This document shows, in pieces, positions 3,292 to 18,619 of a stretch of 20,000 bases of DNA (position 1 is the stretch's first letter; every line of letters starts with the position of its first letter). The notes beneath the pieces are model-generated. The model was not told the origin of the DNA and did no database searches. It saw only the letters and a list, made by a program, of their open reading frames with translations. This DNA comes from an uncultured virus (IMG/VR IMGVR_UViG_3300025894_000009) (lineage: Duplodnaviria; Heunggongvirae; Uroviricota; Caudoviricetes), in the IMG/VR virus record IMGVR_UViG_3300025894_000009. One strand, given 5' to 3'. A program made the position numbers and the translations under genes.

Positions 3292-3299
3292 TATAAATA
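3292..3299 (+). promoter_or_regulatory. T4-type late promoter (gp55-dependent) for the gp4 operon
   Basis: Exact TATAAATA in the intergenic region, 38 nt before the gp4 ATG. Confidence 0.8.
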
Positions 3300-3316
3300 T
3301 TAAGGCAATTACATTT

Positions 3317-3324
3317 TATTTATA
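3317..3324 (-). promoter_or_regulatory. T4-type late promoter for the gp48-gp53-hub-gp5 operon
   Basis: TATTTATA on + (TATAAATA on -), pointing toward gp48. Confidence 0.8.
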
Positions 3325-3337
3325 TCGAAACTGAAAA

Positions 3338-3796
3338 ATGGCATACAAAGGTAAGTTCCGCCCTAAAAATCCCTCGAAATACAAGGGGAATCCTACGGGT
3401 ATTATTTACAGGTCACTGTGGGAATTAAAATTTTTTCGATTGGTGGATGATCACCCTGATGTCATTTGGTGGCAATCGGAAGAACTTATAGTTCCTTATC
3501 GGTCACCAATAGATAAAAAGATTCATCGATATTACCCAGATGTCATCGTGCACATGCGAAAAAGAGATGGTAATATGGGCACGTTGATGATAGAGATTAA
3601 ACCGGCAGGTCAGACAAGACCTCCAGATATAAAGAAGAAGAATGCAACCCCAACCGGTCGCCTTTCACGAAGATATTTAAATGAGGTAAAAACGTGGGGT
3701 GTGAATGATGCTAAATGGAAAGCGGCACGAAGTTACTGTGCCGATCGTGGTTGGGAATTTCAGATCTGGACTGAAAAGGAATTAGGGATTAAATGA
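3338..3796 (+). CDS. gp4: Head completion nuclease gp4 (TnsA-like endonuclease fold)
   Basis: MAYKGKFRPKNPSKYKG...YRSLWE...WQSEE..VPY.SP.D...HRYYPD...IEIKP...NDAKWKAA...WEFQIWTE. Confidence 0.95.
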   Translation: MAYKGKFRPKNPSKYKGNPTGIIYRSLWELKFFRLVDDHPDVIWWQSEELIVPYRSPIDKKIHRYYPDVIVHMRKRDGNMGTLMIEIKPAGQTRPPDIKKKNATPTGRLSRRYLNEVKTWGVNDAKWKAARSYCADRGWEFQIWTEKELGIK

Positions 3797-4257
3797 TTAA
3801 GTTATTGTTCATTGCAGTGATGTTGTTACAATCACAGGCAAAGGCCTCGTGTCAGGCGCATGGTGATCATGAATCTATCGATCAATTGTGTGGCACGGAT
3901 ATGCCTATTAACAATACAATTTTTTATGAAAACACATCACAGGAACCAATTGTTTTGTGGCGAGTATATAATACATCATATCCTCAATCAGCCATGGGAC
4001 GATGGTGGTCTTTAGATGATCCGACAAAGAGTTCCAAGGACGAATATCGCCAGGCAAATGCGATCTGTCCAGAATGGAGTCCCTTAGACGGTATCGCCAA
4101 GTGTGAACTCAGACCTGGCGGAGATTTTGTGATAGGTCATACAGACGCAGTAAGATGTAAGACAGTAAATTATCTTGCATCTGATACACTTCAAATATTC
4201 TTGGTCAACCCATTGGAAGACCTTTACAATTGTACAGTCTCGGACTGGGAGGATTAA
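3793..4257 (+). CDS. Secreted Cys-rich hypothetical protein, possibly ADP-ribosyltransferase/TNT-like fold
   Basis: Sec-type signal peptide (MIKLLFIAVMLLQSQAKA) and 6 Cys. Coupled to both neighbours by an ATGA overlap with gp4 and a TAATG overlap with gp2. Confidence 0.6.
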   Translation: MIKLLFIAVMLLQSQAKASCQAHGDHESIDQLCGTDMPINNTIFYENTSQEPIVLWRVYNTSYPQSAMGRWWSLDDPTKSSKDEYRQANAICPEWSPLDGIAKCELRPGGDFVIGHTDAVRCKTVNYLASDTLQIFLVNPLEDLYNCTVSDWED

Positions 4258-4865: not shown

Positions 4866-5645
4866 ATGCCTTTCAATATATCAAATTTCAAGTCTGCATT
4901 CGATCGCCACGGTGGTCCGGCAAAGGCATCTCTATTCGAGCTTAGAATATCTCATATACCTAAAAAGAATACATCACAAATTGGTGCTAGAGATTTTTCA
5001 TTCTTTTGTAAAAGTGCTACAGTTCCTGGCCTTTCGATCTCAACAGCGGAAGATATAAAGGTAGCTCAATTAAAGAAAGCATTTCCTACGACGTTGAATA
5101 AAGAACCTTTGAATACAATCTTCATGGTCGATTCAAATCACGAAATACTCACCTTCTTTGTTCAGTGGATGCAAACTGTAGTCAATTTTGGTACCTCCGG
5201 CGGAATGTACTCAGACATTGACGACCAATTACCGTTTGAGGTTGGTTATAAGAGTGACTATTCAATGGACATTACTGTTCGTCATTATACAACAGATTCC
5301 TTGGAGTTCAAATTCCAAGAAACAAAATTTATTAACGCCTATCCAGTCAGCATGGGCGATTTAGAATTATCGTGGGATGACAATGATTCTTTTCTTACCC
5401 TTCCAATTTCCTTTGAGTATGATCGTTTTCAATTATCAAATGAAATAGGTGGCTCGAATACAAGCAGATTAGGACGTGGTTCAGGTCTCTTGGAAACCAT
5501 AGGAGCAATTGCAGGATTTGCTGATGTCGTGAGGCAAACAGTAAATCAGGGTAGCGGTATAACATCAATTCAGGATGCTGTCAATAGATTGACAAGAGTC
5601 CGAAATTCTTTTGATAATATTAGCGACGTCTTCGGAGGCGGCTAA
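4866..5645 (+). CDS. gp54: Baseplate tail-tube initiator gp54 (gp19-like tube fold)
   Basis: NISNFKS...GGPAK..LFE, FFCKSATVPG, and NAYPVSMGDLELSWD...LPISFEY tube-protein motifs; lies between gp2 and gp26. Confidence 0.75.
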   Translation: MPFNISNFKSAFDRHGGPAKASLFELRISHIPKKNTSQIGARDFSFFCKSATVPGLSISTAEDIKVAQLKKAFPTTLNKEPLNTIFMVDSNHEILTFFVQWMQTVVNFGTSGGMYSDIDDQLPFEVGYKSDYSMDITVRHYTTDSLEFKFQETKFINAYPVSMGDLELSWDDNDSFLTLPISFEYDRFQLSNEIGGSNTSRLGRGSGLLETIGAIAGFADVVRQTVNQGSGITSIQDAVNRLTRVRNSFDNISDVFGGG

Positions 5646-5661
5646 CATATAGGAGTACATC

Positions 5662-6363
5662 ATGGCTTTACCAAAAATTGACCTACCGATGATGGAGATG
5701 GTTCTACCATCATCAGGCGAAAAAATCAAATACAGACCTTTCACAGTAAAAGAAGAAAAAATCTTATTGGTTGCTCAGGAATCGCAAGATCCAGAACAAG
5801 AAATACTAGCAGCCAAACAAGTGGTGAATAATTGTCTCATAGACAAAGACATCAATGAATTGGCTATGTTTGATTTGGAGTTTGTCTTATTGACAATGAG
5901 ATCCAAATCGATTGACAACAAGCTAGAATTTAGAATAACTGATCCAGATACAAGTGAATCTGTAGAGGTTGAATTAAATCTAGATGAAATGAAATTAGTA
6001 GAAGACGCTAATCACACAAATCGAATCAAGGTCAACGACGAATATTTCATAATACTTAAATATCCAAAAATCGATGAGTTCATTAAGATTGTATCATATG
6101 AACCTACAGATCCTTTGGTAAATTATTTCATTATGGTTTCTTGTCTCGATAAGCTTGTTTCAGAAGATGAGAGTCACGATTTTGGAGAGTACAGCGAAGA
6201 AGAAATCGATGATTTTATGAATAATATGACAGGAAATGTTCTCAAAGGAATTCAAACCTTTTTTGAGACCATGCCCAAACTACGACACGAATTTAATTAT
6301 ACGAACAGTGCGGGTTCAGAGAAAACATTTGTCATTGAGGGTATGCGCACTTTTTTTATCTAA
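5662..6363 (+). CDS. gp26: Baseplate hub assembly protein gp26
   Basis: MALPKIDLP...LPSSGEKIKYRPFTVKEEKILL, FDLEFVLL.MRSKS, FFETMPKL, and C-terminal IEG..TFF. SD AGGAG upstream. Confidence 0.92.
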   Translation: MALPKIDLPMMEMVLPSSGEKIKYRPFTVKEEKILLVAQESQDPEQEILAAKQVVNNCLIDKDINELAMFDLEFVLLTMRSKSIDNKLEFRITDPDTSESVEVELNLDEMKLVEDANHTNRIKVNDEYFIILKYPKIDEFIKIVSYEPTDPLVNYFIMVSCLDKLVSEDESHDFGEYSEEEIDDFMNNMTGNVLKGIQTFFETMPKLRHEFNYTNSAGSEKTFVIEGMRTFFI

Positions 6364-6533
6364 TGTTGTGTCACACTAATCTGGCAAATTATTATCAAAC
6401 TATATTTGCCTTGGCGCAACATCATAAATACTCTATAACTGAGGTAGAAAGTTTGATACCATACGAGAGAGATCTCTACTTTGCAATGCTAGTAAGCTGG
6501 TTAGAAGAACAGAAAGAAAAGCAGAAAAAATAA
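6363..6533 (+). CDS. gp51: Small baseplate hub assembly catalyst gp51 (56 aa), possibly also the -1 frameshift extension of gp26
   Basis: Manual translation MLCHTNLANYYQTIFALAQHHKYSITEVESLIPYERDLYFAMLVSWLEEQKEKQKK matches the short gp51 motif NYY...F.L.QHHKYS..E.E..IP.ERD.Y. Absent from the ORF track. Confidence 0.88.
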   Translation: MLCHTNLANYYQTIFALAQHHKYSITEVESLIPYERDLYFAMLVSWLEEQKEKQKK

Positions 6534-8333
6534 ATGGCAGAAAATACATTACCAGGTCGAGGACGCGGTCCTAGTTTAAAGGAACAACGGTCTGAGGCAT
6601 CCGACGACTCTAGGACCTCAACACAGACGCAGGAAATTGTTGATCGTTTAAAGAAGGATGGGGAGCTTCTTAGGAATAAGGGCAAGAATTCTATTCGATC
6701 AGTTAATATAGAATTATCTAAATTTAGTGATGCTTTTAATGCAATTTCTGGTAGCATTCAAAATCAAAGTGGAATCTTGGCTGGCATGCAGGCAACTGCA
6801 GAAGATCAAGCTGAAATCGCACAGAAGAAGTCCGACTTCGACGAATTGAGCGAAGGTAAGGAATCTGATACCGCAAGAGAAATCAGGCTGCTACGAGAAA
6901 AAGCAGAGCTATTCAATGCCAAGGCAGATTTAAATGATGCGAAAAAACGCGACGGTGGAGGACTAGGTGATATATTAGGTAAACTTGCAAGTGGAGGTTT
7001 CTTAAAGACTCTGGGCTTACTTGCTGGAGGTGGCTTCATTGCATATAATCTAGCAAAGGGATTCATTAATAAGATGACCGATGGTGGGTTTGATACATTT
7101 GTCAAATCTGTGCAAGATTTTGATTGGACAGGTTTGGGTACCACCATCGTTGAGTTTATGGGCAGCGCGAAGGATGGTTTGGCGAATATGATTACCTTCT
7201 TCGACGATCCACTCAAGATTCTTGCAGGTCTCACTGGAGCAGCAGTCGGTGCAAAACTCCTCACATCAATCGGAACCTCAATTGCAGCAAAAGCAATTGG
7301 CCAATTAGTGATGGGATCACCCGGAGCAATGTCTGGTGCTGGTGGTAAGGGCATGGGAAAGGCAATGATGGGTGCTCTTGGTGCCGCCGGTCTGATATAC
7401 GCACAAGATATTGCTGATTTTATTGTCGGGGAGGCAAAAAATTCTGATGTAACAAAAATAGATATCAAAAATGCAGCTACTACAGTAGGTATATCAGTAG
7501 CAAGTGGTGCAACAATTGGAGCTATGTTTGGCCCCAAAGGCATGTTGGCCGGTGCTATTTTAGGTGGTGCTTACGGTCTTGGTCTAGGACTTGTGGATTA
7601 TGTAAAAGAAAATCTCTTGGATATGGGGAAAACGTCAAAGGAAGGCAAACAGGCAATCCAGAAACTAAGAGCTCGAAAAGAGATGGTCGAAGCGATGGGT
7701 CAAGAGAAGTTTGATGCATGGGCTGCCGGCAACGAAGACATGAATGAAGAGTTGCTCTTACAACAAGCTTTTGAAGCTCAAGAAGATATAAGAGCAAAAT
7801 TAGAAGAAGCAAAGAAAAAGAAGGCCAACGTTAAGACTACAGATCTCGTCAGTATCAACAGGTATACGGGGGAAAGAACATACAGAGCGCGCAATCAAGA
7901 CTCTATATTAAGAGACCTCGAACGAGCCGACGAAGAAATACAGAGATACCAAGATCAATTAATGACATTGGATTCTGCATTGCAAACAACAGGATATGAT
8001 CCGACGGCGCTAATCCCGAAAGTTGAAGCGATCCCGTTTGATCAAAGTGGTCCTGAAATGGCCCCGGGCAAAATCGTTGAAACCGAAGAGGAAATGTCAC
8101 CTGAGCTTAAAGCATATTTGGACCGAAATGACATATCAAAACCCATTGCCGGCCCTTCTCCCATCGCGATGGCTCCAATAATGGCTCCAATATCAATTAA
8201 TTATGTGTCTGGTGCACCAGTAAATAATGTACTGAATCAAAATGTACAAGGTGGATCAAGCGTCGCCTCTATGACATCTATGAGTTTAGGTGGTGGTAGT
8301 GGTGGACAAGATGTATTTGGAGCTGTAAGTTAA
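6534..8333 (+). CDS. gp29: Tape measure / baseplate hub protein (gp29-like)
   Basis: 599 aa with a helical/coiled-coil character and Gly/Ala-rich hydrophobic segments; follows gp26-gp51; size similar to T4 gp29. Confidence 0.65.
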   Translation: MAENTLPGRGRGPSLKEQRSEASDDSRTSTQTQEIVDRLKKDGELLRNKGKNSIRSVNIELSKFSDAFNAISGSIQNQSGILAGMQATAEDQAEIAQKKSDFDELSEGKESDTAREIRLLREKAELFNAKADLNDAKKRDGGGLGDILGKLASGGFLKTLGLLAGGGFIAYNLAKGFINKMTDGGFDTFVKSVQDFDWTGLGTTIVEFMGSAKDGLANMITFFDDPLKILAGLTGAAVGAKLLTSIGTSIAAKAIGQLVMGSPGAMSGAGGKGMGKAMMGALGAAGLIYAQDIADFIVGEAKNSDVTKIDIKNAATTVGISVASGATIGAMFGPKGMLAGAILGGAYGLGLGLVDYVKENLLDMGKTSKEGKQAIQKLRARKEMVEAMGQEKFDAWAAGNEDMNEELLLQQAFEAQEDIRAKLEEAKKKKANVKTTDLVSINRYTGERTYRARNQDSILRDLERADEEIQRYQDQLMTLDSALQTTGYDPTALIPKVEAIPFDQSGPEMAPGKIVETEEEMSPELKAYLDRNDISKPIAGPSPIAMAPIMAPISINYVSGAPVNNVLNQNVQGGSSVASMTSMSLGGGSGGQDVFGAVS

Positions 8334-8367: not shown

Positions 8368-8492
8368 AGTTCTTCTCTTTTTCTGAAAGATTCACCAAGA
8401 TTATGGTCGTACATTTCGATGAAATTCATCCATTTCAGACCTTCTTTGAAATCTGCCCAGAGTTGAGAAAAGAAATCACGCAACCTCTGCAT
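8346..8492 (-). CDS. Small hypothetical protein (48 aa)
   Basis: MQRLRDFFSQLWADFKEGLKWMNFIEMYDHNLGESFRKREELKRKESE, with GAGGT SD 5 nt upstream of the ATG. It overlaps the end of the peroxiredoxin gene and fills the gap to the terminator. Confidence 0.5.
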   Translation of the reverse strand: MQRLRDFFSQLWADFKEGLKWMNFIEMYDHNLGESFRKREELKRKESE

Positions 8493-9057
8493 CTTTAACC
8501 TCAGACCTAACCGCAAAGCGATCGGCTACTTCTTCTAGATAAGCGATTACAGATTCAGGTGATGTTACACTATAAGGATCATCTTCACAAAGATCTATCT
8601 TGCCAGGTTCTTCGAATCCTTGTTCGATAACACTATCGGTAACTACCATAGCATATCGCCAAGATCGGTGACCAAAGCCAAGATTATCTTTATCTACCAA
8701 CATGCCAAGTGCTTTCGTAAACTTACCAGAACCATCGGGAATCATCTTGATGTTTTCCACCCCTTGAGCCTTAGCCCAAGCATTCATCACAAATGCATCA
8801 TTGACTGATACACAATAAACATCATCCACATGAAGAGACTTAATGCATTCATAAGCTTCTTCAAAGCCAGGTACTTGGTATGTTGAACACGTAGGTGTGA
8901 ATGCCCCAGGCAAGCTGAAAACAACCACGCGCTTATTCTCGAATAAATCATCAGTGGTTTTGTCTTCCCAACGATAGGGATTGTCACCGCCGATTGATTC
9001 ATCGCGAACTCGTGTTTTAAAGACTACCTGAGGTAGTAGTCGTCCTTGTAGTTCCAT
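8476..9057 (-). CDS. Peroxiredoxin (PRX5/type II, Redoxin family), auxiliary gene
   Basis: VVFSLPGAFTPTCS peroxidatic motif, SVNDAFVMNAW, IPDGSG.FT, and GFG.RSWRYAMVV. Confidence 0.95.
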   Translation of the reverse strand: MELQGRLLPQVVFKTRVRDESIGGDNPYRWEDKTTDDLFENKRVVVFSLPGAFTPTCSTYQVPGFEEAYECIKSLHVDDVYCVSVNDAFVMNAWAKAQGVENIKMIPDGSGKFTKALGMLVDKDNLGFGHRSWRYAMVVTDSVIEQGFEEPGKIDLCEDDPYSVTSPESVIAYLEEVADRFAVRSEVKDAEVA

Positions 9058-9072
9058 TATATAGTTCTCCTA

Positions 9073-9522
9073 TCAATCGACCAAAAGTTCTCTTGTGGAA
9101 CCGATGGCTATTTTCTTGGGTCTTTTCTCTTCTGGAATAATTCGTTCCAATTGAATAGTTAAAAGACCATTGACATACTCGGCTCCTTGCACTTCAATAT
9201 CATCAGCTAGAGTGAATGAACGAGTAAATTTCTTTCTTGAAATACCGCGATGAAGATATTCGCCAGTAACATTATCATCGCTAGATTCATCCCACGCGGA
9301 TTTGACAGTCAAGGTATTTTCTTTGTGCTCGATGTCAATATCTTCTTGGTTGAGTCCGGCGAGAGCAATGTCGATGTAGAACTTCTCGTCATCCCTGCGG
9401 ATATTGTATGGGGGGAATCCTTGGTTATTTGGATGCTGGTGCGACTGCTCCAACAACCGATCGAACATGCGATCGAAACCAACGGAATAGGGGGTTAACG
9501 TATTAAGGTTAAATCGTGTCAT
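9073..9522 (-). CDS. hsp20: Small heat shock protein Hsp20 (IbpA/B-like)
   Basis: VGFDRMF, FPPYNI, IALAG, YLHRGIS..KFTRSFTLAD, NGLL.I.LERIIPEEKRPKKI.I. Start reassigned to 9522 because of the AAGGAG SD. Confidence 0.95.
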   Translation of the reverse strand: MTRFNLNTLTPYSVGFDRMFDRLLEQSHQHPNNQGFPPYNIRRDDEKFYIDIALAGLNQEDIDIEHKENTLTVKSAWDESSDDNVTGEYLHRGISRKKFTRSFTLADDIEVQGAEYVNGLLTIQLERIIPEEKRPKKIAIGSTRELLVD

Positions 9523-9606
9523 TGTGCTATCTCCTTTTAAGCAAGACATTTAGTTTTGTGTAGGTAAAACCCTACGGTTCAATGGGACCCTTTCGGCATC
9601 CCACGG
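9523..9606 (-). promoter_or_regulatory. ROSE-like RNA thermometer in the hsp20 5' UTR
   Basis: Three hairpins. The last, UGUCUUGCU-UAAA-AGGAGAUA, pairs the UUGCU motif with the SD and leaves a bulged G, which is the ROSE hallmark. Confidence 0.75.
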
Positions 9607-9610
9607 AATT

Positions 9611-9618
9611 TATTTATA
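9611..9618 (-). promoter_or_regulatory. T4-type late promoter for hsp20-prx
   Basis: TATAAATA on the - strand immediately after the dUTPase stop and immediately before the structured UTR. Confidence 0.8.
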
Positions 9619-10131
9619 TCAGTTTGTACTGCCTAGACCACCGTCACGATCAGTTTTTTGTTCGGGTTTTGTCTTTGTTTCTGATATAGAATACTTCAGA
9701 GTCTTCTGTAGCATTCCTTGAGCGATTCTCTCCCCGTTCTTTAATAACACCAATGTATCAGATACATTATGAAGAACGACGAATAGCGGATCGACATAGT
9801 CGCTATCAATGATACCAGTGCTATTCGCTAGTGTCAACCCTTTCTTTAGAGCGACAGATGAACGAACATACATTTTAAGGACATGATCCTTCGGAATGTC
9901 GAATATCAATCCAGTGGGGATCAATACTCGTTGTTCTGGTGGAATCTTGATGGCATGGACACCATCGACCCTTTCTTTTGCTACAATCGGTGCTTCTTTA
10001 TTCCAAGCATTATAACTCTTCAGAAATTCCATAGGAGCAAAACATGCCTTGAGATCAAAGCATGCAGACCCTTCGGTTGCAAATTCTGGGAGTTCAGCTA
10101 ACTCTGTGTGTTTAAAGACTTTCATATTCAT
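9619..10131 (-). CDS. dut: Trimeric dUTPase
   Basis: Motifs GSACFDL, LIPTGL, RSS.ALK.GL, GIIDSDY, GERIAQ and RDGGLGST. Confidence 0.95.
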   Translation of the reverse strand: MNMKVFKHTELAELPEFATEGSACFDLKACFAPMEFLKSYNAWNKEAPIVAKERVDGVHAIKIPPEQRVLIPTGLIFDIPKDHVLKMYVRSSVALKKGLTLANSTGIIDSDYVDPLFVVLHNVSDTLVLLKNGERIAQGMLQKTLKYSISETKTKPEQKTDRDGGLGSTN

Positions 10132-13225: not shown

Positions 13226-14116
13226 TTATTTACGGTTTTGTTTAAACTTTGAGGGTTTACGATAATTCTTTTTGGATGAAGAAGAATCAGCAGTAGCAGT
13301 AAGTCTTAGCTTAGACATCTTGCCAAGATCTGCCTTATACAGGTGACTACCAACGTGAGTTAATTTCATCCAAGGACACATCCAAATTTTCATGCCGATG
13401 TCTCGAGTCTTTCGACAGAAGTAATAATCTTCAGATAGGTATCGTCTGCTTTCTGGATCGATCATACAATCAAAGAATGCAGTGATTTCATTAGTCCCAT
13501 CAAAATTTTCTGTTCGAGCATGGTCAGGTCGATATCGTTGTTCTGGATATGCCTCGGCCCATCTTTCAAACGTGTCTCTAGGTATCAACATAAACCCAGT
13601 ACCCGATTCACCAACCTGAACTGGTTGACCCATTTTAGGATCTGGTGTATCAACAATGTTGAAAACATAATCGGCAGAATATTCTTCTAGTTCCCAAGGA
13701 TTCACATCACCCATGCCCATCTTTGCTGCAATATTAATTTTTTCCCAAGCGATAGTCTTTTTGGGATAAGGAGCGCAGATGACGTTTACATCTTTTTCGT
13801 TCTTGGTTTGAATACCGATCATGGCCAAGACATCTCTTGGGTCAAAGCCAATGTCCGAATCTATGAACAATAAATGAGTACAGTCAGATCGCAAGAATTC
13901 ATCTACGATATAATTCCTTGCTCTTTGTACTAAACTTTCGTTGAATAAGAAATACTGCCGTAGATAGATATTATTAGCACCACAGATCGTAGAAAGATCT
14001 GCTACGGATTTTGTGTAGAGACCATGACAGTTCCCACCGTACATTGGAGTACCAAGAAAGATTCTTGTCTTTTGCAAATCTTCTCCGGTGATTGATGTCT
14101 TTGTTGGATCTATCAT
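13226..14116 (-). CDS. GT-A fold (GT2-like) glycosyltransferase
   Basis: IFLGTPMYGG, NESLVQRARN, THLLFIDSDIGF (DxD motif), GTGFMLI.R, YLSEDYYFC and L.H.G. Confidence 0.8.
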   Translation of the reverse strand: MIDPTKTSITGEDLQKTRIFLGTPMYGGNCHGLYTKSVADLSTICGANNIYLRQYFLFNESLVQRARNYIVDEFLRSDCTHLLFIDSDIGFDPRDVLAMIGIQTKNEKDVNVICAPYPKKTIAWEKINIAAKMGMGDVNPWELEEYSADYVFNIVDTPDPKMGQPVQVGESGTGFMLIPRDTFERWAEAYPEQRYRPDHARTENFDGTNEITAFFDCMIDPESRRYLSEDYYFCRKTRDIGMKIWMCPWMKLTHVGSHLYKADLGKMSKLRLTATADSSSSKKNYRKPSKFKQNRK

Positions 14117-14124
14117 ATTATTCC

Positions 14125-14328
14125 TTAGAAGTATTTGTTGAGCATTGCAATTTTATCATGCCATTCTGCCATAGAGGCCAATTCCTTTTCAATCGTCTCG
14201 ATCAAATCAGAGTGTTCTGCAACACCAACTGGATTTCTCAAAAACAATTCTACATTCATTCTGTGTTTCTCAATCTGGCCTCGAAAGTAATCGGTTGCAG
14301 ATTCTATAATTTCTTCTCGCATATCCAT
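14125..14328 (-). CDS. Hypothetical phage protein (67 aa)
   Basis: GQIEKHRMNVE..L.NPVGVAEH.D..E.IE.EL resembles a family recalled from aquatic T4-like phages; SD GGAG. Confidence 0.75.
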   Translation of the reverse strand: MDMREEIIESATDYFRGQIEKHRMNVELFLRNPVGVAEHSDLIETIEKELASMAEWHDKIAMLNKYF

Positions 14329-14343
14329 CTTTATAACTCCATA

Positions 14344-14372
14344 ATTATAACAGACTTTGGGTCACTTGTCAA
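14344..14372 (-). promoter_or_regulatory. Sigma70-type promoter for the 67-aa ORF, GT2 and gp45
   Basis: TTGACA-17 nt-TATAAT with an extended TG; the -35 element lies in the last codons of the dehydrogenase gene. Confidence 0.85.
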
Positions 14373-15219
14373 CCCCTCTCATCGTTTTGTTAATATTAAC
14401 TGCACTTTCTAGTAAATTAAGGACATAATCGTCACCCAATTCTTTAGAATAGTTCACAAAGGCAGAAGTGTCCTTTGGAAAGCAGTTACCTCCGAAGCCT
14501 CGTTGTCCGTCTGGGCCTGGCACTTTCATATGGCTGGATCCCATACGAGGCTCTTGTGCCAGAATATCGGTAAAGGTATTCCAAGAATCGGTCGTGCCAG
14601 AATTCTCAAATACATTATTAATCTCATTGAAGAATGTTACTTTCATAGCAAGAAAAGAATTAATAGTATATTTCAACATACTGGCTGTGACTGCATCTAC
14701 CTTATACGTTGCACATAATCGAACGTTACTGTAATTATTGTATGCGCGTTCTACGACTGTGCAATCTTCGAACTTTCCACCAAGAATTTGGAAGGGCGGA
14801 TTTACGAAATCATTTCTGGCGTTAGCCTCTGTCAAGAACTCTGGGTTATAGACAATCTTAAGGCCTTGGAATTTAGCCAACATCGCCTTGATATTACCAG
14901 GCTGTACCGTACTCTTTAACACGACAATACCTTTATATCGGAGTCGAGCTAATTCAGCAAATACAGATTCGATTATCGAATTATCTTGATTACCATCAGC
15001 GTCGGGTGGTGTTGGAACGCAGACAAATGTGAGTTGTGGATTGAACATGATCAAATCATCATAGTCGAACTCGTCGAGTCTAGGATCGATGATCAGTTGT
15101 TTTGTGTAGTCGTTCTCGAAGCCAAAAGACACGGAACTCCCAACGAAACCGTACCCGATGACCCCGATTCTTAATGCGTTAGTCATGATGTTTGCTTGCT
15201 CTCTTGTTAATGCGGTCAT
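14362..15219 (-). CDS. UDP-glucose/GDP-mannose 6-dehydrogenase family protein (short form)
   Basis: GYGFVG Rossmann motif, FVCVPTP, KSTV.PG, YNPEFL.E, KY..NSFLA.KVTFFNE, and catalytic GFGGNCFPKD. Start placed at 15219 because of GGAGG. Confidence 0.9.
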   Translation of the reverse strand: MTALTREQANIMTNALRIGVIGYGFVGSSVSFGFENDYTKQLIIDPRLDEFDYDDLIMFNPQLTFVCVPTPPDADGNQDNSIIESVFAELARLRYKGIVVLKSTVQPGNIKAMLAKFQGLKIVYNPEFLTEANARNDFVNPPFQILGGKFEDCTVVERAYNNYSNVRLCATYKVDAVTASMLKYTINSFLAMKVTFFNEINNVFENSGTTDSWNTFTDILAQEPRMGSSHMKVPGPDGQRGFGGNCFPKDTSAFVNYSKELGDDYVLNLLESAVNINKTMRGVDK

Positions 15220-15249
15220 AGTACCTCCCATAATATTGTATATTTTTAT

Positions 15250-15867
15250 TTAGTCCAAAAACTCAACACGGTCAATGAATTGTAACCGCATCACGTCAGC
15301 CATGATGTCATAGGCACTATCGTGAGCTTTAAAATTACTTTCCCAATTACTATCGGGAACCTCAAAGCCATTTTTTCTAGGGAAATTGAGTTTTGCATCG
15401 ATCCAGGTTCTGGTGTCCCTCAGTTTATAATGAGGAAGGTATTCGTGAACCGTATTCAATTTGCCGGCAGCTTCGAAGAGTCGCCATAGGATAAGAGGAT
15501 CAAAAGAATTAGAACGAGACCACCAGCAAGAGATCTTACCATGAGGTCGGATATATTCTAGGAACTCATCACAGAATTCTCTAACGGTCAAATCAGCCGG
15601 AGATGGCTTGATGTTTCTTCTGACTTCTTTGGGTAGGGTCATCCACCACTCTAATGTGCTTTCTTCAATGCCGAAGTTATGATCTTCTACCTGATGCTTT
15701 ACATTGAGTTTGAATTTTTTACATTCACCAACATCGGCGAATGAATAGGGGGTATTGGATTGGAATCTGTCCCAGTCGAAAACCAGAGCAGACATATCAA
15801 CGACAGCACATGAGTTCATGTCAGTGCCCATCGTTTCGAAATCAATAATTACGTGTTTTTTAGTCAT
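15250..15867 (-). CDS. dexA: DEDDh 3'-5' exonuclease (DexA-like)
   Basis: IIDFETMG (ExoI), TLEWW, WSRSNSFD (ExoII), RDTRT, and HDSAYD (ExoIII). Confidence 0.85.
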   Translation of the reverse strand: MTKKHVIIDFETMGTDMNSCAVVDMSALVFDWDRFQSNTPYSFADVGECKKFKLNVKHQVEDHNFGIEESTLEWWMTLPKEVRRNIKPSPADLTVREFCDEFLEYIRPHGKISCWWSRSNSFDPLILWRLFEAAGKLNTVHEYLPHYKLRDTRTWIDAKLNFPRKNGFEVPDSNWESNFKAHDSAYDIMADVMRLQFIDRVEFLD

Positions 15868-15891
15868 AATATAATACCGCGTCAATGAAAC

Positions 15892-15899
15892 TATTTATA
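15892..15899 (-). promoter_or_regulatory. T4-type late promoter upstream of dexA
   Basis: TATAAATA on the - strand in the intergenic gap. Confidence 0.6.
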
Positions 15900-15911
15900 T
15901 AGCTTCTGTTT

Positions 15912-16784
15912 TTAAGTGGTGGCGAATTCTCGTTTCGTGATATATTCTACCAAATCGTGTCTTGGTTCCCACCCAAGTTCCCTTATCTTATCCGTAATAA
16001 CGGGTGCAGACATACGGTTACCTCTTGCTCCTGGTCCCATTTCGAAATCAGCATCGAAAAGTATCGCCACATCGATAATAGAATAAGCATCTGGATGTCC
16101 TATCCCGTACTCATCGCCATGTCCCTGCTCTCCGATAAGCATCAATCCATCGACAATATCATCAATGTGGGTAAAGTTTCTTTCTTGTGTACCAGGTGAC
16201 GTGATTGTCAACGTCTCGCCCTTGGCTTTCTTCTCAGCAAATTTTGCAATCAAAGTAGCATATTTGCCCTGTGAGATTTCACCCGGGCCATACACATTGT
16301 AAAAATAAGAAATAGCATAGTCCAGACCATACCATTCACCAAATTTCTTTACGAGTTCTGTATTCTGGGCCTTTGAGAATGCATATGGACTCATTACATA
16401 ACCTGGAGTCTGATCTGCAAACTTTGTACTAGAACCAGCATACACTACCTTTGCTTCCCATTTCAAAGCAAGTTTTAGAATATTGTAGGTTCCATTTGTA
16501 TTGAACTCATGGACAAGATCGACATCATCGAAGCTCTGTTCCACTCTAGAATATTCACCCAGATGATATACCAGAGTAGGTCTTATTTTGAAAGTCCATT
16601 CTTGCAATTCAGCTGTAGATTTCTGAAAGTACGTGACGTTAGGCAAATCGACATGACTATCCCAAGAACCAGTGAAATAGTTATCCACTGATATAATTGT
16701 ATTTTCTGGATTTTCTGCAAGTCTTTTAACCAGGTTACTGCCAACAAATCCAGCACCACCTGTGACCAAAATTACATTATGCAT
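15912..16784 (-). CDS. NAD-dependent nucleotide-sugar epimerase/dehydratase (extended SDR)
   Basis: ILVTGGAGFVGS, YAGSS, YAFSK (YxxxK), YFYNVYGP and RNFTHIDDIV.GL. Start reassigned to 16784 (MHNVILVTGG). Confidence 0.92.
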   Translation of the reverse strand: MHNVILVTGGAGFVGSNLVKRLAENPENTIISVDNYFTGSWDSHVDLPNVTYFQKSTAELQEWTFKIRPTLVYHLGEYSRVEQSFDDVDLVHEFNTNGTYNILKLALKWEAKVVYAGSSTKFADQTPGYVMSPYAFSKAQNTELVKKFGEWYGLDYAISYFYNVYGPGEISQGKYATLIAKFAEKKAKGETLTITSPGTQERNFTHIDDIVDGLMLIGEQGHGDEYGIGHPDAYSIIDVAILFDADFEMGPGARGNRMSAPVITDKIRELGWEPRHDLVEYITKREFATT

Positions 16785-18003
16785 GTATCGAAGTTCTCCC
16801 TGTTGGAAATACGTCGGCCTCGAACAATGGATCTGGATATTGATCATCAGTACCATAGTTACGCATGAGACTCATCCCATAATTATTTGTTTTATTGTGG
16901 ATAGGAACATTCTTTTTCAAAATCAAAGCATTCTGTCGAGCTGGTTGGCCAGTATGTTTATTGACAATTGCATTCAGATCAACATGATGGTGAACACGAC
17001 CATATCGTTCTACCAACGTCACACAGTCTGGATGCATTTCTTTTAGCATTTTTGACTTATTGTAGGCAGGGTCTTCTCCACTTTCATCCTTCTTATAATC
17101 TTTGTAGACCTCAGTGGTATTACCGCCTTTCACAGTTCCGGTTCTCATTTTGCCTTGATAGAAAGCATAGAACAACATTGTTGTCCAGCCTTCTTTAAGA
17201 GCACGGATTGAGATATCCACATCTTCATTAAACTTGCCACGCCATCGACCGGGGAAACTATTGTCGATAAGGATACATGACATCAATCTAGTATTTAGTA
17301 TGAACGGCTGATAGGCACACTGATTAATCACGAAGAATTTATAATGAGGGCCTGCAAGAGCAACATTCTCAAATCGATCAGTGAAATCTTCCACGGCTCT
17401 AAACATACCCGAGCCCTTTTCGATAACATATCTTTTATTGTTATGAAGGCGACCGAAATCAACAATGTTGTCGTCCATCATCCAATGCTTGTCAAAGCCC
17501 AGGGCGAGGGAGTGTTCCCACATCCAATTACGTGCAGGCCCAGAGCCCTTCCCATGATTGCTGAATGGCAATTCAAGAACGGTACCAAACTCTGGGTTTG
17601 TCACGGCCTGATAGTTGTCGAATTCTTGAGGCTCAACACAGATATAATATTGGATGCCCATGCGTTCAAGAGCCTTTGCTGTATATCTGCTCTCCCACCG
17701 ACCCTTCGACAAAATGTAAATTGGGTATCGCGTATGGGTTTCTTCATCGACCCACTTATTAAACAGATTCACTTCACGATCCTTATTAGGATATTGCAGA
17801 ATGTGAGTCTTGTCTGTCAGCTTGTAATCAAATCGCTCACCAAAATGCTCACGATCTTCACGTGTTTTGAAATGAACTCGCAATTGCTTGAATGGGTCTT
17901 GTTTGGGTTGGGTAAAAGCAGGAGCGCCGGCTGCATACCATTGTATAAATTGGTTTCTCCACTCTTGTTGGAGCTCTTCATGAGTGTGTACGGGTTGAAA
18001 CAT
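16777..18003 (-). CDS. GREB1/TET-associated (TAGT)-like glycosyltransferase with a fused N-terminal accessory domain
   Basis: YPIYILSKGR, VEPQE...Y, G.GPARNW.WEH, HWMMDDNI..F, SCILI.N, WRGKFNED.D.S.R.LK.G..T, and KGGNT are motifs of phage GREB1-like/TAGT GT-A enzymes. Confidence 0.75.
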   Translation of the reverse strand: MFQPVHTHEELQQEWRNQFIQWYAAGAPAFTQPKQDPFKQLRVHFKTREDREHFGERFDYKLTDKTHILQYPNKDREVNLFNKWVDEETHTRYPIYILSKGRWESRYTAKALERMGIQYYICVEPQEFDNYQAVTNPEFGTVLELPFSNHGKGSGPARNWMWEHSLALGFDKHWMMDDNIVDFGRLHNNKRYVIEKGSGMFRAVEDFTDRFENVALAGPHYKFFVINQCAYQPFILNTRLMSCILIDNSFPGRWRGKFNEDVDISIRALKEGWTTMLFYAFYQGKMRTGTVKGGNTTEVYKDYKKDESGEDPAYNKSKMLKEMHPDCVTLVERYGRVHHHVDLNAIVNKHTGQPARQNALILKKNVPIHNKTNNYGMSLMRNYGTDDQYPDPLFEADVFPTGRTSIHA

Positions 18004-18451: not shown

Positions 18452-18619
18452 TCATTTGTCGTTGCAACGTTCATCAGTCACAAGATATGTCATCTGGCCA
18501 TTATCATTAACTCTGCCACCTTCGAGGCACTTACCACACTGAGATCCTACTTTTTCTAGTAGAAAATGGTTTTCGGCTAGCATTTTCTCAGTGATTGCGT
18601 TGCAGACACAAACGTACAT
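18452..18619 (-). CDS. bfd: Bfd-like [2Fe-2S] ferredoxin (bacterioferritin-associated), 55 aa
   Basis: Manual translation MYVCVCNAITEKMLAENHFLLEKVGSQCGKCLEGGRVNDNGQMTYLVTDERCNDK contains the MYVCxCN...VGxQCGKC Bfd signature. TAATG coupling to the upstream ORF. Absent from the ORF track. Confidence 0.8.
   Translation of the reverse strand: MYVCVCNAITEKMLAENHFLLEKVGSQCGKCLEGGRVNDNGQMTYLVTDERCNDK

Follow-up and report, generated by a model that had tools for sequence, protein, structure and literature searches.

In this study, we report that gp26 and the small 'gp51' domain behind it, found in a 20,000-nt stretch of DNA from an uncultured marine, T4-like virus of the Caudoviricetes (IMG/VR record IMGVR_UViG_3300025894_000009; hereafter the window), very probably constitute one tail assembly chaperone (TAC) gene that gives two products by means of a predicted programmed -1 frameshift. 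The slippery heptamer and the SD-like element at the junction are each weak when the window is taken by itself, and the case for the frameshift rests on conservation.

The gp26 gene lies on the plus strand at positions 5662 to 6363 and encodes a short tail assembly chaperone of 233 aa (TAC-N, the lambda G equivalent; PF12322, E 4.7e-52; phrog_150, E 8e-58). Its 3' end reads ACT TTT TTT ATC TAA, so that the heptamer T TTT TTT (6351-6357, plus strand), which covers Phe231-Phe232, is in phase and one codon ahead of the stop. The stop codon itself, TAA at 6361-6363, overlaps an ATG of the -1 frame at 6363 (TAATG). The -1 frame is free of stops from 6339 to the stop codon at 6531-6533 and, read from the heptamer (6351-6533, plus strand), specifies the 'gp51' domain (TAC-C, the lambda T equivalent; phrog_634, E 2e-22) as 58 additional residues; the predicted -1 fusion would thus be 232 + 58 = 290 aa in length, compared with the 233 aa of the short product. 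An internal SD-like GAGG is present at 6337-6340 on the same strand, with 10 nt separating it from the heptamer that follows and 22 nt from the ATG. When recomputed from the sequence, the positions of gp26, the heptamer, the GAGG, the ATG and the -1 frame were all as the original prediction had given them.

In-phase X XXY YYZ sites numbered 19 in the 5,483 codons of the 22 long ORFs of the window, and the junction heptamer was the only one located at a gene end; seen in the window alone, the heptamer is little evidence. An assembly slip at the T run was considered and rejected, because contigs of each of the four public runs examined (2 RNA and 2 DNA) spanned the T run with no indel, and because the run is conserved in 94 junctions. 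The closest sequences were from marine metagenomes, and annotated phages were at most about 40% identical among the matches listed.

For the comparison of junctions, 80 of 91 related IMG/VR loci were kept, 79 of which extend to the gp26 stop, and 14 GenBank phages were added, hand-picked for host range (Synechococcus, Prochlorococcus, Methylophilales, rhizobia, Vibrio, Shewanella, Aeromonas and Cronobacter). Together with the window these made up 94 junctions; one locus whose contig ends ahead of the gp26 stop (L022) and one with a truncated gp26 (L100) were omitted from the counts. To locate the slip site, the last six codons of gp26 were scanned for their first Phe-Phe or Phe-Leu pair, with no T's being required. 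Junctions under 80% identity served as 55 representatives, and the expectation for these was calculated from synonymous codon usage in gp26.

The sequence T TTT TTN was found in phase at all 94 junctions, ending in TTC at 50, in TTT at 43 and in TTG at one. The heptamer occurred in 55/55 representatives against the 19.8 expected from synonymous usage, with the proviso that p-values overstate the evidence, since the representatives are related to one another. The original prediction had proposed that homologues be searched for a random phase between the two genes, for stops between the slip site and the ATG, and for synonymous changes that break the heptamer. The gp51 domain was in the -1 phase at all of the 79 assessable IMG/VR loci and in all 14 GenBank phages, the -1 frame was open for 57-69 codons, with no stop between the heptamer and the gp51 domain, in 94/94 junctions, and not one of these junctions carried a synonymous change that breaks the heptamer. 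Judged by this comparison, selection acts on the heptamer, the phase and the open frame.

A separate route to gp51, translational coupling at the TAATG overlap, was also weighed. According to this explanation gp51 is an independent 56-aa protein, and the T run merely encodes a needed Phe-Phe. The TAATG seen in the window is an overlap typical of coupling, the GenBank records of many relatives list a separate small gene, and an ATG or GTG stands at or beside the gp26 stop in 21 of the 55 representatives. The other 34, however, have no such start. The window's own overlap ATG is present in 11/55 representatives (the window and 10 others) and has an SD pairing of +1.9 kcal/mol, i.e. no SD, and the first possible start is equipped with an SD of -5 kcal/mol or better in only five of the 55. 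In 20/55 representatives, the first ATG, GTG or TTG of the -1 frame is situated at least 16 codons in, and the -1-frame residues ahead of these late starts are conserved (Leu in 47, His in 42, Leu in 50 and Tyr in 44 of 55). As far as the aligned representatives indicate, the -1 frame has no conserved start of its own, and with residues conserved upstream of the first starts, coupling at TAATG cannot be the family-wide route. Moreover, Phe-Phe needs neither TTT nor a preceding T, both of which are invariant here, and phages with two separate genes write it TTC TTT. The window's ATG pairs with a CAT at the base of the stem-loop described below, so that its presence can be explained without initiation. 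Of the reinitiation route that had been put forward for gp51, the ATG of the window is confirmed, and the lack of an SD and the absence of the start from most representatives tell against the rest; taken as the general explanation, it is very improbable. It is possible that some free 56-aa protein is made from the overlap ATG in the window and the 10 other representatives that have it.

For the programmed frameshift, the GAGG upstream of the heptamer is a probable 5' stimulator, as indicated by codon choice across the junctions. SD-forming codons (GAGG/AGGA) were used for Glu-Gly in 36 of the 40 junctions having this pair upstream, as against 83 of the 196 such pairs that occur in flanking genes (p 1.5e-8), and pairing with the anti-SD was above the synonymous mean in 47/55 representatives. 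GAGG or GGAGG was located 9-10 nt from the heptamer in 28/55 representatives, and AGGA 8 nt from it in 14/55, just short of the 9-14 nt range given for SD spacing in -1 shifts in a section of PMC5009743; six of the 55 had no SD 4-mer. The SD of the window by itself was not significant, as 28.5% of synonymous recodings pair equally well. The proposal of an internal SD stimulator is thus borne out in the position of the GAGG and in its enrichment across junctions, and not in the window considered singly.

On the 3' side, a stem-loop that was absent from the original prediction was identified at 6363-6422 (plus strand). It begins 5 nt past the heptamer and has a predicted energy of -18.1 kcal/mol (z -4.7; 0/200 shuffles reach it), and its predicted fold consists of an outer stem (6363-6373 with 6412-6422) and an inner stem (6383-6389 with 6404-6410). 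In 17 close relatives the outer stem was 89.8% paired, with a covariation score reached by 1/500 shuffles, and three of its pairs were changed on both sides, a count reached by 30/500 shuffles; the structure tested was the window's own fold, and kinship of the relatives inflates these shuffle controls. The stem-pairing codons CTG and CAG co-occurred in 13 of 16 relatives, in whose gp26 genes CTG accounts for 10 of 342 Leu codons and CAG for 24 of 117 Gln codons. The inner helix differed in register among the relatives, and only the outer stem was retained by RNAalifold. Across the 55 representatives, the 3' region had a mean z of -2.2 against recoded controls (39 below -1 and 16 above -1), some folding no better than controls, and distant phages showed other 3' structures or none. 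By these comparisons conservation of the outer stem is limited to the closest clade, and the stem-loop is a probable 3' stimulator of the slip.

In the mechanism that we propose, most ribosomes would terminate at 6361, yielding the short form of 233 aa. A smaller share would be slowed between the internal SD, 10 nt upstream, and the stem-loop, 5 nt downstream; the two tRNA-Phe on UUU UUU would then slip back one base in tandem, and the slipped ribosomes would translate 58 further codons to give the 290-aa long form. On the model of lambda G/GT, the tape measure protein would be coated by the short form and joined to the tail tube protein by the long one, the two forms being made in a fixed ratio. 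We infer the ribosomal nature of the slip, its rate, its stimulation by the SD and the stem-loop, and the binding partners of the products.

Slippage during transcription, with RNA polymerase adding one U on the T run, would yield an identical protein from a homopolymer run, and a 294-aa database protein (P0001) does read through the junction in one frame. The run, however, is just 6 T in 50 of the 94 junctions, and transcriptional slippage usually requires longer runs. The strict phase and the SD and stem-loop stimulators favour the ribosome, and the RNA contigs of two runs were without an indel, though contigs drop rare variants. P0001 is a singleton from one contig, either an assembly error or a true fusion; a weak search for longer proteins with the gp51 domain gave it alone among 2 candidates, and its structure, folded without an alignment, had a pLDDT of 35 and was not used. 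We therefore attach hardly any probability to an origin of the long form in transcription.

The phages with two separate genes provide a natural control for the frameshift reading. In T4, gp26 (208 aa) and gp51 (249 aa) are encoded by two divergently transcribed genes without the heptamer (GAG TTC TTT). The profile of the short form matched T4 gp26 (E 1e-28) and also residues 15-172 of T4 gp51, and the -1-frame profile matched residues 207-238 of T4 gp51. Among ten two-gene phages (T4 and nine others), gp51 matched both the gp26 and the -1-frame profiles in every case, the -1-frame match always being in the C-terminal ~50 residues, and the heptamer was kept in none. Phe-Phe was retained in T4, RB69, X20, Bp7 and 15882-3-1, where it is written TTC TTT; the same codons were found in five of six further T4-type IMG/VR loci, and the sixth has G TTT TTT with a -1 frame that stops at once. 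From these profile matches, the ~250-aa gp51 of two-gene phages is a hard-wired fusion of a gp26-like part with the gp51 domain. The line of T4 would have replaced the slip by gene duplication, a view that has previously been published on bioinformatic grounds as a proposal.

Two observations on the distribution of these layouts were also made. Aeh1, LPCS28 and avDM12 are Straboviridae with the frameshift layout, in which the -1-frame domain is unannotated, and the two-gene layout is thus confined to part of the Straboviridae. In GAP161, the fused gp51 immediately precedes gp26 and shares its strand, as against the divergent pair of T4, and this arrangement is possibly a trace of tandem duplication.

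An AlphaFold2 model of gp26 (42-sequence alignment, pLDDT 85) was compared with 48,161 chains. Residues 1-93 gave the top matches, to 3FGX (Z 8.2, rmsd 3.9, 84 aligned) and to the HK97 tail assembly chaperone 2OB9 (Z 7.6, rmsd 3.5, 83 aligned), values of Z 7.6-8.2 being middling by the tool's own scale. Further matches were 3KLU (Z 6.3) and 5IR0 (Z 5.1), and the next row had 4.4. We take 3FGX and 3KLU to be TACs. No PDB match of the model in Foldseek reached E<=0.001 (3FGX came 20th, with E 1.1), and a sequence-profile search of the PDB with gp26 found no relative. We assign a TAC-like fold to the modelled N-terminal domain with moderate confidence. With this fold, and with the T4-type gp51 being the fused form, the proposal that gp26/gp51 is the equivalent of G/GT is supported. 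Residues ~94-233 of gp26 are outside the TAC-like domain. Separately, two flanking strands within residues 85-229 (~5914-6348) weakly resemble the Hsp40/DnaJ peptide-binding domain, with Z 3.0-3.9 and 46-49 aligned residues in several rows, a resemblance that serves as a lead.

A gene of the tail-tube family (gp19/gp54-like; 4866-5645, plus strand; phrog_45, E 7.5e-32) lies just 5' of gp26, and the gene order gp4, gp2, tube, gp26, gp51 is shared by phiM12. Directly after the -1-frame stop, a gene at 6534-8333 on the plus strand encodes a 599-aa protein, close in size to T4 gp29 (590 aa), for which the ESM Atlas gave PF25671 T4_Tape_measure as a lead (score 0.91, 146 shared features). This protein had no PHROG match and no meaningful Pfam match; compared with T4 gp29, its BLAST E value was 0.012 and its own profile was not significant. 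From its position, its size and the one Atlas lead, the gene probably encodes the tape measure protein. The pair had been said to sit directly before the tape measure gene: it does adjoin the 599-aa gene, whose identity as tape measure stands as a lead. Compared with close relatives, the 599-aa protein was also seen to carry ~20-25 extra N-terminal residues (6534-6620), ahead of a conserved IVDRLK.

The two products might instead be baseplate hub components or hub-assembly factors, made by a real frameshift and not acting as chaperones of the tape measure protein. Database names such as 'baseplate hub' and 'hub assembly catalyst' point this way, as do the genetic support for gp26 in the hub that is cited in a passage of PMC3004832, the gp26 residues ~94-233 beyond the TAC-like domain, and a tape measure identity of the downstream gene that is a lead only. 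The TAC-like N-terminal domain, and the location between a tube-family gene and a gene of tape-measure size, speak for the chaperone role. In GenBank record MN709128 both genes bear the name 'tape measure protein assembly chaperone'. Listings within PMC3004832 place gp26 and gp51 among the chaperones and gp29 under hub as well as tape measure, so that the hub and chaperone labels can denote one and the same role. A hub function in place of the chaperone function is unlikely.

The start of the probable tape measure gene was 2-18 nt from the -1-frame stop in the window (6531-6536) and in loci L001-L028. Its SD was on average -3.9 kcal/mol in 16 close relatives, against -6.7 kcal/mol for gp26, and -1.8 kcal/mol in the window. 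Such a weak SD may point to coupling with ribosomes that have frameshifted, or may mean no more than low expression. More tentatively, and with more doubt than belief, we suggest that the three-part cassette of SD, U-heptamer and covarying stem-loop also gates the next gene, the tape measure protein being translated mainly by slipped ribosomes. If true, a single slip would fix the proportions in which the two chaperone forms and the tape measure protein are made.

The original prediction had regarded a slip in T4-like gp26/gp51 as undescribed, which proved to be wrong. A 2022 study by Vladimirov and co-workers reportedly names genes 26 and 51 and has several T4-like groups frameshifting. The subject of that study is the tail assembly chaperones of T4-like phages (Vladimirov, Gautam and Davidson 2022, Virology 566:9-15, pmid 34826709, as far as its record states). 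Passages that cite it attribute to it polyT sequences as -1 signals in the TAC-N genes of T4-like phages (Vladimirov et al. 2022, as cited in PMC12846349) and, in some T4-like phages, a short gene accompanied by a fused long one in place of the shift (Vladimirov et al. 2022, as cited in PMC10885494). The frameshift idea for T4-like phages is therefore already published as a proposal. A passage of a 2016 review had the G-T shift as conserved 'except T4' (PMC5009743). A passage of PMC12803255 had nothing on T4-like genes. Our literature search found neither an experimental test of the slip in T4-like phages nor an account of SD or stem-loop stimulators in these phages, though Vladimirov et al. 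2022 and its supplements may contain the one and the other. Novelty in the present analysis could lie only in the stem-loop, in the SD bias and in the possible coupling of the downstream gene. The small gp51 domain was matched in 554 phage records, and the shift was marked in none of the 14 frameshift-type GenBank records, where gp51 is a stand-alone gene, a truncated gene or no gene.

Several features elsewhere in the window were recorded. Between gp4 and gp2, which are adjacent genes in phiM12, lies an ORF of 154 aa (3793-4257, plus strand; no Pfam match) whose start resembles a signal peptide and which contains several cysteines. Motifs of the sequence TATAAATA are present on both strands (3292 on the plus and 3317 on the minus strand; region 3292-3324) between the divergent gp48 and gp4, and we take them to be late-promoter-like. 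On the minus strand, gene content defines a sugar-modification cluster at 13226-18003, possibly serving DNA or virion glycosylation. It includes a UDP-glucose dehydrogenase-like gene (14362-15231), an NAD-dependent epimerase (15912-16856) and a TET-associated glycosyltransferase (PF20691, E 1.6e-44; 16777-18003), together with a 3'-5' exonuclease-like gene (15250-15885) and a 296-aa ORF with no Pfam match (13226-14116). Genes for a peroxiredoxin (Redoxin), an Hsp20, a dUTPase and a small BFD-like ferredoxin candidate, the last under the Pfam cut-off, were found by Pfam on the same strand at 8476-10131 and 18452-18619.

The predicted system is like lambda G/GT in having a short form, a -1-extended form and a TAC-like fold. 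The slip site of lambda is Gly-Lys; unlike it, the site here is a U-run heptamer with tRNA-Phe, and the window further differs from lambda in its 233-aa short form, with ~140 extra residues, and in its contractile T4-type tail. In sections of PMC5009743, lambda gpG and gpGT are described as a short form and a rare -1 extended form encoded 5' of the tape measure gene, and U_UUU_UUU is said to shift less well in E. coli than A_AAA_AAG does. The likeness to E. coli dnaX is in the three-part design of the signal, and is one of analogy, not homology. The dnaX shift takes place at A AAA AAG with tRNA-Lys and yields a shorter product, unlike the slip here, which would yield a longer one. An excerpt of PMC6771820 gives the dnaX signal as an upstream SD-like sequence, the heptamer and a downstream stem-loop. 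For the Pakpunavirus/Vandenendeviridae, the portion of PMC12846349 concerned argues from conservation for a frameshift in a myovirus TAC, where the T-rich site is invariant and the -1 frame open; it mentions no stimulators. Unlike the window, these phages have the motif GTTTTT and belong to another family. A further comparison is with T4 gp26/gp51, to which the window's pair is homologous, matching T4 gp26 and the C-terminus of T4 gp51. It differs in that the window has the heptamer and an overlapping -1 frame and T4 has two divergent genes. The frameshift reading would correct the annotation of a core tail gene, and would tie the T4 'hub assembly' genes 26 and 51 to the logic of lambda G/GT.
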